Made by a program: the position numbers and the translations under genes
Assembly (NCBI GenBank): GCA_963771885.1
Contig: CAVYVF010000002.1
Span: 64,001-128,000, forward strand
Direction: 5' to 3'
From: Candidatus Bathyarchaeota archaeon
Lineage (GTDB): Archaea > Thermoproteota > Bathyarchaeia > TCS64
DNA: 64,000 nucleotides
Shown here: positions 7,837 to 42,628 of the stretch, one piece after another
Layout: every line of letters starts with the position of its first letter
Position numbering within the stretch: the stretch's first letter is position 1
Notes under the pieces: generated by a model
The model's input: the letters and a program-made list of their open reading frames with translations, nothing else
The model's database searches: none
Told to the model about the DNA's origin: nothing

Positions 7837-7948
7837 GGAATCAACTTCATTTACCGGAGATAAAACGTTTCCAATGCCCGATGCTGTGCCTCAAGTATCC
7901 AGCCGGCAAAGGTATTTAGGCGTCCGGCTCACATGCCTGTAGAACGCA

Positions 7949-8452
7949 ATGGGGGACAAAGCTCTCATACCCTGGCGTGAGGTCGCGAACTGGGGCTGCC
8001 GCGCATGCGGAAACTGCTGCGTCGGCTACAGGGTCCCCCTGAAGATGGACGAGTTCGTAAAGATCGGTAACGCCTGCGGCCAGGAGGTCTTCGAATACGG
8101 CATGGGCAAAGTCTACCTGCGCAACGGCATGAACCGCAGATGCGTGCTCCAGCGCCCACTCATGGACAGGTGGATATGCACCGTACAGGGCATGAAACCC
8201 ACAGCATGCCGCCTATTCCCGTTCCGTATACAACACAAGCCCGTATACCCCCGCGGCGACAACAGCGCATACAGCCTCGGCGACAAGGTCTACTACATCT
8301 ACCTCGACCCCGACTGCGAGGGCATCGTCCCAGGGCAACCCACGGAGAGGTTCGCAATGCAGATACTCCCCGAGATAATCAGGAGCGGCTTCGGCGTCGC
8401 AGGGAAGCAGAGGTTCACAACGTCCAAGTACATCAGCTGGACGCCGCCATGA
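7949..8452 (+). CDS. YkgJ/UPF0153 cysteine-cluster (CxxCxxCC) protein
   Basis: CRACGNCC...C...C....KPTACRLFPF. Confidence 0.85.
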   Translation: MGDKALIPWREVANWGCRACGNCCVGYRVPLKMDEFVKIGNACGQEVFEYGMGKVYLRNGMNRRCVLQRPLMDRWICTVQGMKPTACRLFPFRIQHKPVYPRGDNSAYSLGDKVYYIYLDPDCEGIVPGQPTERFAMQILPEIIRSGFGVAGKQRFTTSKYISWTPP

Positions 8453-8545
8453 CGCCGCCGAAAGCTGATGTTAATAGGAATTAAACCTGTTAATCGAGTT
8501 CCACGAAGCCAGTCCTCGTTTTAGCGGCGCCGACAATTATTCGTC

Positions 8546-8563
8546 GTCCCATCATGATGGGAC
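8546..8563. repeat. Perfect 18-bp palindrome GTCCCATCATGATGGGAC
   Basis: Read directly from the sequence; it is self-complementary. Confidence 0.9.
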
Positions 8564-8672
8564 ATTATTAACTGATGGAGGACAATAATCCAGCGGGATC
8601 GCGGGGAATACTCGAAGAAGTTGTCACACCGGGACAACGCAGCCACTAAATCCGTTAAGATCAATGTATGAA

Positions 8673-8816
8673 TTGCCCAGGTGGGAGCGCCTCAAGGGTC
8701 GGAGCAGCGTTCAAGACCCCCGCGAGACGCAGAACCCAGAGGGACGGGCTGCATAAGGCCCCGGGGGCTTAGGCTCTTGGGAATCCTTCGTCCCCTCGGT
8801 GAGAACACCTGGGCAA
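8673..8816. ncRNA. Candidate structured ncRNA or MITE, about 145 nt, closed by an 11-bp stem
   Basis: TTGCCCAGGTG pairs with CACCTGGGCAA and encloses two long GC-rich hairpins. It lies between convergent genes with no credible ORF. Confidence 0.45.
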
Positions 8817-8846
8817 CTCCATTTTATCTGGAAAAATTAATTCCGG

Positions 8847-9449
8847 TTATCCGCCACGCATGCCGAAGAGGCCGCCCGGGTTCGCCTGAGCCGCTGTGTT
8901 GACCATCCTCAGCGAGAATAATCCTAAGGCAAGTGAGAGGATAATGGGGATGAGCGCTACGAAGGCAGCCTTTTTTGCTGTTAGGCCGTAATTGAGCATT
9001 ACCGCTACCCCAATGAGGACCAGGCTGATTATCGTGAAGACGTTGAAGTAGTCGACCAGCAACTCGATAAGATTCGTCGTCGTCAGCGGCATGCTGCCTA
9101 GAAGCCAGTAGCTAACGAATCGCAGCATCTGCTGGATGAGCGCCGGGATAGAGGCATACGCCGTGAGAGCGAACATCCTGTTTCTGTCACCCTTACCGCC
9201 GAGTATATGCGCCGCTGCGTGGTAGATGAGCGTCGTTATGACCCAGCCCAAATAGACCCCGAGAACCGCGCCGACCGATGTCGCGGCTCCAATGGTACCG
9301 CCCATGCCCGCGAGCTCCGGTATAACCAGCTTCGACGCCACAACATATGCAGTCGCCGCAGCAAAGGCCGCAGTGAGAGTAACTATCCCAGCGCCTTTCA
9401 TGAGGTCCTTATCTGTGACACCGTCGAGCCACCTTGTTACCGGCGCCAA
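8847..9449 (-). CDS. Yip1-family membrane protein
   Basis: Five TM segments with HILGGKG and AYASIPA. The true start may lie slightly upstream across a frameshift (GAGGTG SD followed by TTG, MAEKQY...). Confidence 0.8.
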   Translation of the reverse strand: MAPVTRWLDGVTDKDLMKGAGIVTLTAAFAAATAYVVASKLVIPELAGMGGTIGAATSVGAVLGVYLGWVITTLIYHAAAHILGGKGDRNRMFALTAYASIPALIQQMLRFVSYWLLGSMPLTTTNLIELLVDYFNVFTIISLVLIGVAVMLNYGLTAKKAAFVALIPIILSLALGLFSLRMVNTAAQANPGGLFGMRGG

Positions 9450-9589
9450 TCTGCCCCGTATATTGCTTCTCGGCCAAGGATCTGCACCTCTCTATGCTCC
9501 TTCAGGGCTCGGATATATAGTTGACCTCTACCTAGTCAGCTGGCTCTGCCCCTCCTGCTTATATTTTCTGGGGCGTGGATAGTTACGTT

Positions 9590-42550: not shown

Positions 42551-42628
42551 GGGTCCGTGGTCTAGCCAGGATATGACATCAGCCTGCGGAGTTGATAGTC
42601 GTGGGTTCGAATCCCACCGGGCCCGCCA
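42551..42628 (+). tRNA. tRNA-Arg(GCG), CCA encoded, no intron
   Basis: Acceptor stem GGGTCCG/CGGGCCC, anticodon arm TCAGC-CTGCGGA-GTTGA, T arm GTGGG-TTCGAAT-CCCAC, then G-CCA. Confidence 0.95.

Follow-up and report, generated by a model that had tools for sequence, protein, structure and literature searches.

Within the window, i.e., the 64,000 nucleotides of a Candidatus Bathyarchaeota archaeon contig (CAVYVF010000002.1) analyzed here, positions 8673 to 8816 almost certainly hold a real gene for a structured non-coding RNA. This RNA, termed family 1, is an independent gene on the + strand with a TATA box, an upstream dyad and a U-tract. It belongs to a very small regulon which further comprises a second RNA, family 2, and a gene for an HTH-zinc-ribbon protein. 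No description of family 1 was found in the articles and abstracts searched. It thus seems to be new to the literature, and the small regulon to which it belongs is centred on RNA. An earlier note, made from the sequence alone, had proposed a stand-alone, possibly undescribed archaeal ncRNA. This proposal is borne out by the lack of an Rfam match, by covariation, by promoter and terminator signals of its own and by bounded RNA contigs. The features are as follows:

7949..8452, + strand: CxxCxxCC protein gene, the upstream neighbour, ending towards the element
8471..8493, + strand: distal AT-rich block, conserved among type A promoters
8546..8586, + strand: upstream promoter element at about -129, dyad plus TT...CAA block (18-bp dyad at 8546-8563), common to family 2 and the HTH gene
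8620..8638, + strand: TTG-N11-CAA inverted repeat directly 5' of BRE/TATA
8647..8651, + strand: TATA-like box, -26 to -22
8673..8816, + strand: family 1 structured ncRNA, type A, from fold, model matches and RNA contigs
8674..8683, + strand: 5' strand of the closing helix P1, pairing with 8806-8815
8684..8686, + strand: junction strand J1/2 (G-R-A)
8687..8730, + strand: arm P2, with P2a 8687-8693/8724-8730, P2b 8696-8700/8715-8719 and loop 8701-8714
8704..8708, + strand: 5' strand of the pseudoknot, in the P2 loop
8731..8733, + strand: junction strand J2/3 (N-G-A), its G and A being candidates for G1b and A2b in a k-junction
8734..8800, + strand: arm P3/P4
8748..8752, + strand: 3' strand of the pseudoknot, in the internal loop of arm 2
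8766..8775, + strand: conserved hairpin tip (G-U, G-C and C-G pairs; UUWG-type loop), resembling the tips of family 2 and the HTH leader
8801..8805, + strand: junction strand J3/1 (R-A-G-A-A/C), in 136 of 139 sequences
8817..8826, + strand: oligo-T terminator-like tract
8847..9449, - strand: Yip1-domain protein gene, the convergent downstream neighbour, ending towards the element

Both flanking genes end towards the element, just as had been claimed. The CxxCxxCC gene keeps its synteny within the genus only and is outside the RNA system; the Yip1-domain gene is absent from this locus in some relatives. The genes around the element, between 2789 and 14203 of the window, are unremarkable in Pfam and code for rubrerythrin, LarA-like, M50 peptidase, GNAT, HGSNAT, tRNA_SAD, proline racemase, creatininase, DHH and beta-lactamase-fold proteins, and one tRNA is located at 42551-42625. 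Could the element be a riboswitch or leader acting in cis? An RNA of the family 2 type does form the 5' leader at the HTH gene, and at 50 of 90 family 1 loci the next gene downstream is on the same strand. Yet a convergent gene follows at 36 of the 90, the window locus included (the other four are contig ends). No steady position 5' of related genes was seen at these loci, the downstream genes are unrelated across genera, and the U-tract sits directly 3' of the stem. A cis-acting role appears extremely improbable.

The strand had been left undecided in the earlier note. It is now assigned as + because G-U exceeds A-C in the paired columns of family 1 (156 vs 59), TATA-like words lie upstream and TTTT follows the stem. 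At -33 to -18 such TATA-like words occur at 74 of 86 family 1 loci, compared with 8 of 86 in a control window. The metagenome copies behave likewise (61/70 vs 7/70), and in 64 of 74 of them TTTT stands right 3' of the stem. Judged from the TATA spacing and an invariant T-G step, the RNA likely starts at G8675; its 3' end is at 8813-8816 or slightly past.

All stems that had been reported from the sequence are present where they had been placed, and the three-way junction which they were said to form is supported by the + strand fold (-70.8 kcal/mol, z -2.83, equally stable shuffles 0/200) as well as by both-sided changes. The - strand folds at -66.4 kcal/mol (z -2.05, 3/200). Two details of the initial description require adjustment. 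The closing stem of 11 perfect base pairs exists in this sequence, yet only 10 bp of it are conserved (8674-8683/8806-8815), the outermost T-A pair being lost in most homologues. The AAGG/CCTT helix of arm 2 exists too, yet it is the weakest helix with 72-76% of cells paired. In P1 99% of cells are paired and 5 of 10 pairs show both-sided changes. Over the entire nested fold, 90.3% of cells pair in 47 sequences with a mean identity of 66%, and both-sided changes are found at 34 of 49 pairs; none of 500 shuffles does as well, and in slid controls 29-42% of cells pair. These figures overstate significance, since the sequences had been aligned to the nested structure and the relatives are not independent.

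A 5-bp pseudoknot, 8704-8708/8748-8752, was missed in the first reading. It is among the top mutual-information pairs and is absent from the covariance model used. In the metagenome set, i.e., the 80 loci listed out of at least 119 matched by a pattern scan (68 new sequences; all 80 scored by the model), 378 of 379 pseudoknot cells are paired, with both-sided changes at three of five pairs. Of the pseudoknot, the scan pattern prescribed some 3' strand positions and left the loop strand free. The junction purines which the pattern left free are invariant or nearly so. Across the 47 sequences J1/2 reads G in 42, G/A in 43 and A in 46. The G and A of J2/3, free in the search pattern, are present in 68 of 68 new metagenome sequences, as are the R and the A with which they would form the pairs G1b-A1n and A2b-G/A2n (68/68 each). 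Sequence conservation is concentrated in the junction, pseudoknot, tip and terminal helix; outside the junction invariant unpaired bases are few. A variable single-stranded guide segment was not seen in the family 1 alignments.

From these sequence patterns family 1 probably carries a k-junction in conjunction with the pseudoknot. It agrees with the definition in PMC4005666, i.e., G-A pairs next to the NC helix and a third helix in the non-bulged strand. Only 1-2 unpaired nt are located 5' of G1b compared with 3-4 nt in the canonical k-junction loop; in known k-junctions part of the loop 5' of G1b is paired. We propose that P2 is the C helix, P3 the NC helix and P1 the T helix. Such a k-junction would set the two arms side by side and so permit the pseudoknot. 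The first assignment, with P1 as NC helix, was dropped because P2 and P3 would then be coaxial, at odds with the pseudoknot.

A junction of this type also brings to mind a protein-independent RNA, ligand-binding or catalytic, which acts in trans and whose arms are juxtaposed as in TPP riboswitches. There, according to PMC4005666 and PMC10573300, the k-junction sets the arms which form the pocket. The multi-stem junction and the pseudoknot with invariant core purines would suit such an RNA. It is disfavoured by the lack of any Rfam riboswitch or ribozyme match, by the scarcity of invariant unpaired bases outside the junction and by the lack of an associated pathway gene. The hammerhead core word is present in only 5 of 139 sequences. 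We consider this reading unlikely.

The element stretch is on record in 14 RNA runs, in small shares. Four of these, from four studies, were mapped to 7900-9500. Their contigs cover 8683-8815, spanning from 8683, 8685 or 8692 to 8813 or 8815. In three of the four nothing else is covered in 7900-9500; the fourth adds two low-depth coding pieces. In three runs the contigs end at 8813 with sequencing adapter beyond it, and two have adapter before 8685. Shared, adapter-bounded ends are what a discrete molecule of about 140 nt would give. These runs were found via the element stretch, the contigs give neither strand nor level, and DNA carry-over is possible; contig depth is unsuited to ranking expression, and blank flanking genes were not taken as silent.

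Rfam 15 at gathering score yields one tRNA only in the window and nothing at the element; even with E up to 10 merely chance matches surround it. Canonical 5S, SRP and RNase P RNAs reside elsewhere in the genome, above cut-off, and ARAGORN reports no tRNA or tmRNA at any copy. The opinion that the element fits none of tRNA, 5S, SRP or RNase P holds. A T-loop word was encountered in 16 of 139 sequences, never in a T arm. A tRNA-like 3' end was contemplated due to C-C 3' of the stem in 25 of 66 parsed copies; it was ruled out as there is no T arm. A conserved ORF over the element was likewise ruled out since orthologues differ by single-base indels. For a retron, no PF00078 reverse transcriptase was found in the genome and the neighbours are unrelated.

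A guide RNA (C/D, H/ACA or TnpB/IscB omega RNA) or a Y/vault-like RNA might be suspected from the k-turn-like G-A motifs, the terminal helix, the small size and the presence of L7Ae-family genes. However, the C box RUGAUGA is present in 0 of 139 sequences, a terminal D box CUGA in 2 of 139 and ACA 3' of the stem in 0 of 139. The 92% complete genome has no match to PF05731 (TROVE/Ro60), the Y RNA partner, and none over cut-off to PF07282 (TnpB); a conserved U-tract stands where the guide of an omega RNA is expected, and family 1 has no variable guide. Such an identity is very improbable.

How widespread is family 1? By BLAST, 14 of the 17 genomes in the genus, this one included, have the element, and the top orthologues are 83-95% identical to it. 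A covariance model recovers it from 51 of 71 genomes of the same Bathyarchaeia family, with 1-6 copies each. Individual genera differ: 16/17, 4/5, 1/1, 1/1 and 28/32 genomes are positive in five genera and 0/14 in seven others. A second covariance model added one weak match (E 0.035), found family 1 in 0 of 8 genomes of other families of the order, and in class samples outside the family 0/122 and 0/115 genomes were positive. Among 185,579 species genomes, a pattern scan with complete listing detected 65 matches, 62 in records of Bathyarchaeia or Bathyarchaeota and one in another archaeal record. One match on a 5-kb contig of a bacterial bin has flanking genes matching Bathyarchaeia loci and is probably a mis-bin; one in Planctomycetota was rejected by the covariance model. 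Loose pattern scans produced mostly chance bacterial matches among the matches listed, and those in Thermoplasmata and Firmicutes were rejected. From the loose-scan loci listed the model accepted 4 of 80, all Bathyarchaeia; in another listing 30 of 80 were accepted at high score. Viral contigs gave 0 family 1 matches. The family range is a lower bound: in a 'negative' genus the promoter alone led to L437 (G020:C23), a diverged, family-1-like RNA which shares terminal helix, U-tract and promoter with family 1 and had been missed by both models. Another locus, L453 (G032:C12:139395-139518), is a weak model match (E 0.035) with terminal helix and terminator-like tail and no clear core or promoter; possibly it is a remnant. 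Small contigs in bacterial-labelled bins also carry these RNAs (L303/L495, L461); the neighbours of L303 are of Bathyarchaeia type, and both cases are probable mis-bins.

The genome has five copies: the window copy, C2:169327(-), C2:172642(-), C23:967549(+) and C23:512952(-). Paralogues of types B and C, about 169 and about 202 nt long, respectively, have extra helices in arm 2, inserted in the 3' bulge of P3/P4. Long type C RNAs were noted at L211 and L237. The tRNA_SAD (AlaX-like) gene which lies downstream of type A in other genomes lies downstream of type C at L211; a single locus can thus acquire or lose the extra domain. The type A locus is syntenic across the genus, and neighbours are not common across genera. 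A dispersed repeat of about 26 bp occurs between accessory genes in one orientation (L042, L043, L044, L048 and nine sites in this genome, G000). Of 21 type B/C copies, 7 have the repeat within 500 nt, as against 1 of the 70 remaining copies, and several type B copies have it on either side. This suggests that the RNA gene and its promoter move in a cassette-like manner.

The multiple copies, up to six per genome, the location of types B and C at unrelated loci and the nearby 26-bp repeat are the observations which a MITE or another selfish repeat would explain, its terminal inverted repeat being the closing stem. The earlier note had kept this option, to be decided by many dispersed copies with target-site duplications. 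It does not stand up to the low numbers of copies, the genus-wide synteny of type A, selection for pairing instead of terminal DNA repeats, the internal compensatory changes, the conserved pseudoknot, the bias of G-U to one strand and a promoter conserved 130-200 nt outside the stem. The 92% complete genome has no reverse transcriptase and no TnpB over cut-off, and no target-site duplication was evident by eye in flank alignments. For type A the MITE reading is already largely refuted, and overall it is highly unlikely.

A dyad followed by a TT...CAA block is present in 45 of 86 upstream regions of family 1, in 44 at -127 to -130 (shuffles 0-5), and in 46 of 70 metagenome copies (reversed control 0). 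Types B and C and the fifth copy have a different upstream sequence, which is conserved in types B and C. Scanning this genome with the element gives three strong matches with scores of 59, 37 and 22, the next being 9.5: the window copy, a D-type paralogue and an HTH gene at C2:253075(-). The element was detected in 58 of 63 family genomes compared with 8 of 237 others, in which the reversed-pattern control gives 14; by these sequence matches it is family-specific, and within the family one genus is without it. Fifteen more promoter matches comprise six family 2 loci, one truncated family 1 and two unreadable at contig ends; the other six precede protein genes without structured RNA, five being one orthologous site. 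In G027:C53 (L425/L429) the promoter element is duplicated together with about 460 nt adjoining. Family 2 follows just one of the two copies, and the duplication may be an assembly artefact.

The product of the HTH gene is 112 aa long and combines a GcrA/Myb-like HTH with a zinc ribbon of four cysteines. Similarities are to the GcrA DNA-binding domain (E 7e-5) and c-Myb (E 6e-4), and Pfam GcrA is reported for 10 of 15 members. AlphaFold predicts three helices and a beta-ribbon with a mean pLDDT of 70; a search of representatives returned mainly multi-repeat HTH proteins. Of 79 genomes from the order, 65 contain the gene, the promoter of which carries the element at 29 of 30 loci. A structured leader, mostly 150-270 nt, follows at the same spacing; its closing helix is conserved, its interior variable. 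The gene also occurs in genera and in a sister family without family 1 and the promoter element, and within its own genus no copy was seen in 5 of 17 genomes, four of them with family 1 (incomplete genomes). In this genome (252405-253075 of contig C2, - strand; L367) a leader of about 185 nt precedes it, and a CBS-domain gene and two more genes follow, which by eye resemble Mut7-C and AMMECR1. In one relative the leader is nearly deleted, with promoter and HTH gene remaining (L377/L395).

Family 2 is a stand-alone RNA of about 220 nt in relatives. At 13 loci it converges on Pcc1/DHH genes behind the same promoter element (L423-L426, L432, L435, L436, L446, L448-L452). Thirteen of 33 predicted pairs are compensatory in nine sequences. 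Neither family 2 nor the HTH leader has an Rfam match, and a family 2 profile search detected no stand-alone copy in this genome. The same profile matches three HTH leaders at E ~1e-16. Named family 2 records are from Bathyarchaeia, bar one probable mis-bin and three probable chance matches; one match on a viral contig, apparently in a coding stretch, was taken as chance. The hairpin tip of family 1 recurs in similar form. It is present in 65 of 71 family 1 copies, 18 of 29 HTH leaders (shuffles: mean 0.16, maximum 2) and 10 of 12 parsed family 2 copies. The leader count is a lower bound, some leaders having been truncated by the rule that set their ends; one genus contributes 10 of the 18. 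The motif is short, with 102 occurrences in the genome, and the loop-closing pair is C-G vs G-C between families.

What, then, does family 1 do? Action in trans via the fold is proposed because there is no conserved neighbour, no guide boxes and no Ro60, reverse transcriptase or TnpB partner. A shared RNA-binding protein with feedback is the most economical solution because the sole consistently co-promoted protein gene has a related RNA and the tip in its leader. Family 1 would then be a stable, compactly folded RNA working by binding a protein, with the exposed, conserved hairpin tip as putative binding site. Free RNAs may act as decoys or scaffolds for a protein which also reads the HTH leader, possibly the HTH protein itself, and a feedback loop of CsrB/6S-like logic would be closed. 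Such a protein-binding trans RNA in a circuit with the HTH protein is our preferred reading, held with somewhat less than even confidence. It draws on the own-genome promoter scan, which singles out RNA copies and the HTH gene, on the element and tip common to both RNA families and the HTH gene, and on the homology of family 2 with HTH leaders. It has to contend with lineages that have the HTH gene without family 1 or the element, with a short tip common in the genome and leader matches of which 10 of 18 are from one genus, with the other upstream sequence of types B and C and the fifth copy, and with the lack of any antisense match >9 nt between family 1 and HTH leader or mRNA. Furthermore, GcrA/Myb domains usually bind DNA, and CsrB sponges carry many sites whereas one family 1 copy has one tip. 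An L7Ae-bound RNP was downgraded since, according to PMC10573300, L7Ae did not fold two k-junctions tested.

A broader formulation, held a little more tentatively, is a dedicated promoter class which arose in this one archaeal family, is defined by the dyad at a fixed 129 nt upstream and serves almost only structured ncRNAs. It might drive two unrelated folds and the HTH mRNA with its RNA leader. Through a shared hairpin handle for one protein, these RNAs would form a feedback circuit with that protein or make up a new class of RNP. Instead, family 1 may be a stable RNA acting on core machinery, i.e., RNA polymerase, the ribosome or another RNP, in stress or growth phase, and be merely co-regulated with the HTH gene. 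The record in 14 RNA runs with the element alone covered in three of four, the compact pseudoknotted fold and the presence in most genomes of the two largest genera would be expected of it. The restriction to one family speaks against it, and 6S RNA is a long irregular hairpin from which family 1 differs. We rate this possible and rather doubtful.

Known structured RNAs of archaea are mostly RNAs of translation and processing and modification guides. Two apparently undescribed, covariation-supported families from a widespread sediment lineage are now added. With its probable natural k-junction and pseudoknot, family 1 lends itself at once to structural studies. Since a candidate regulator can be named and the promoter element is precisely defined, what this orphan RNA does can be addressed directly in vitro; the promoter shared by two RNAs and the HTH gene points to an unrecognised RNA-based regulatory system. 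If the dedicated promoter class is real, these would loosely resemble eukaryotic snRNA-type genes, the promoters of which have upstream elements read by the Myb-domain SNAPc. As an analogy only, both have an upstream element at fixed spacing, mostly ncRNA genes and a Myb-like protein. The analogy implies no homology, and in the present case the Myb/GcrA-like gene itself belongs to the regulon, its product being a putative binder of the element.

Other systems share individual traits. CsrB/RsmZ sponges and 6S RNA are regulatory RNAs which also stand alone, often occur in several copies and are tied to a protein that regulates. Unlike these, family 1 is archaeal, has no repeated GGA loops or open-promoter-like hairpin and no Rfam match. 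IMES, OLE, ROOL and GOLLD are orphan structured RNAs of unknown function, found by covariation and seen in environmental RNA. Family 1 differs by its fold, its archaeal origin, the lack of an Rfam match and a dedicated promoter shared with a second RNA and the HTH gene. With 5S rRNA (RF00001) it has in common the size and a three-way junction closed by the 5' and 3' ends, yet it does not match at E up to 10 and has a pseudoknot and dispersed copies with their own promoter. In architecture family 1 resembles the known k-junction systems: a three-way junction in which a helix is capped by conserved tandem G-A pairs and the arms come to lie side by side. Family 1 matches neither of the two Rfam families concerned and has only 1-2 unpaired nt 5' of G1b. 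In contrast to these systems it is a stand-alone gene, with a second set of G-A pairs on P1 and a Watson-Crick pseudoknot joining the arms.
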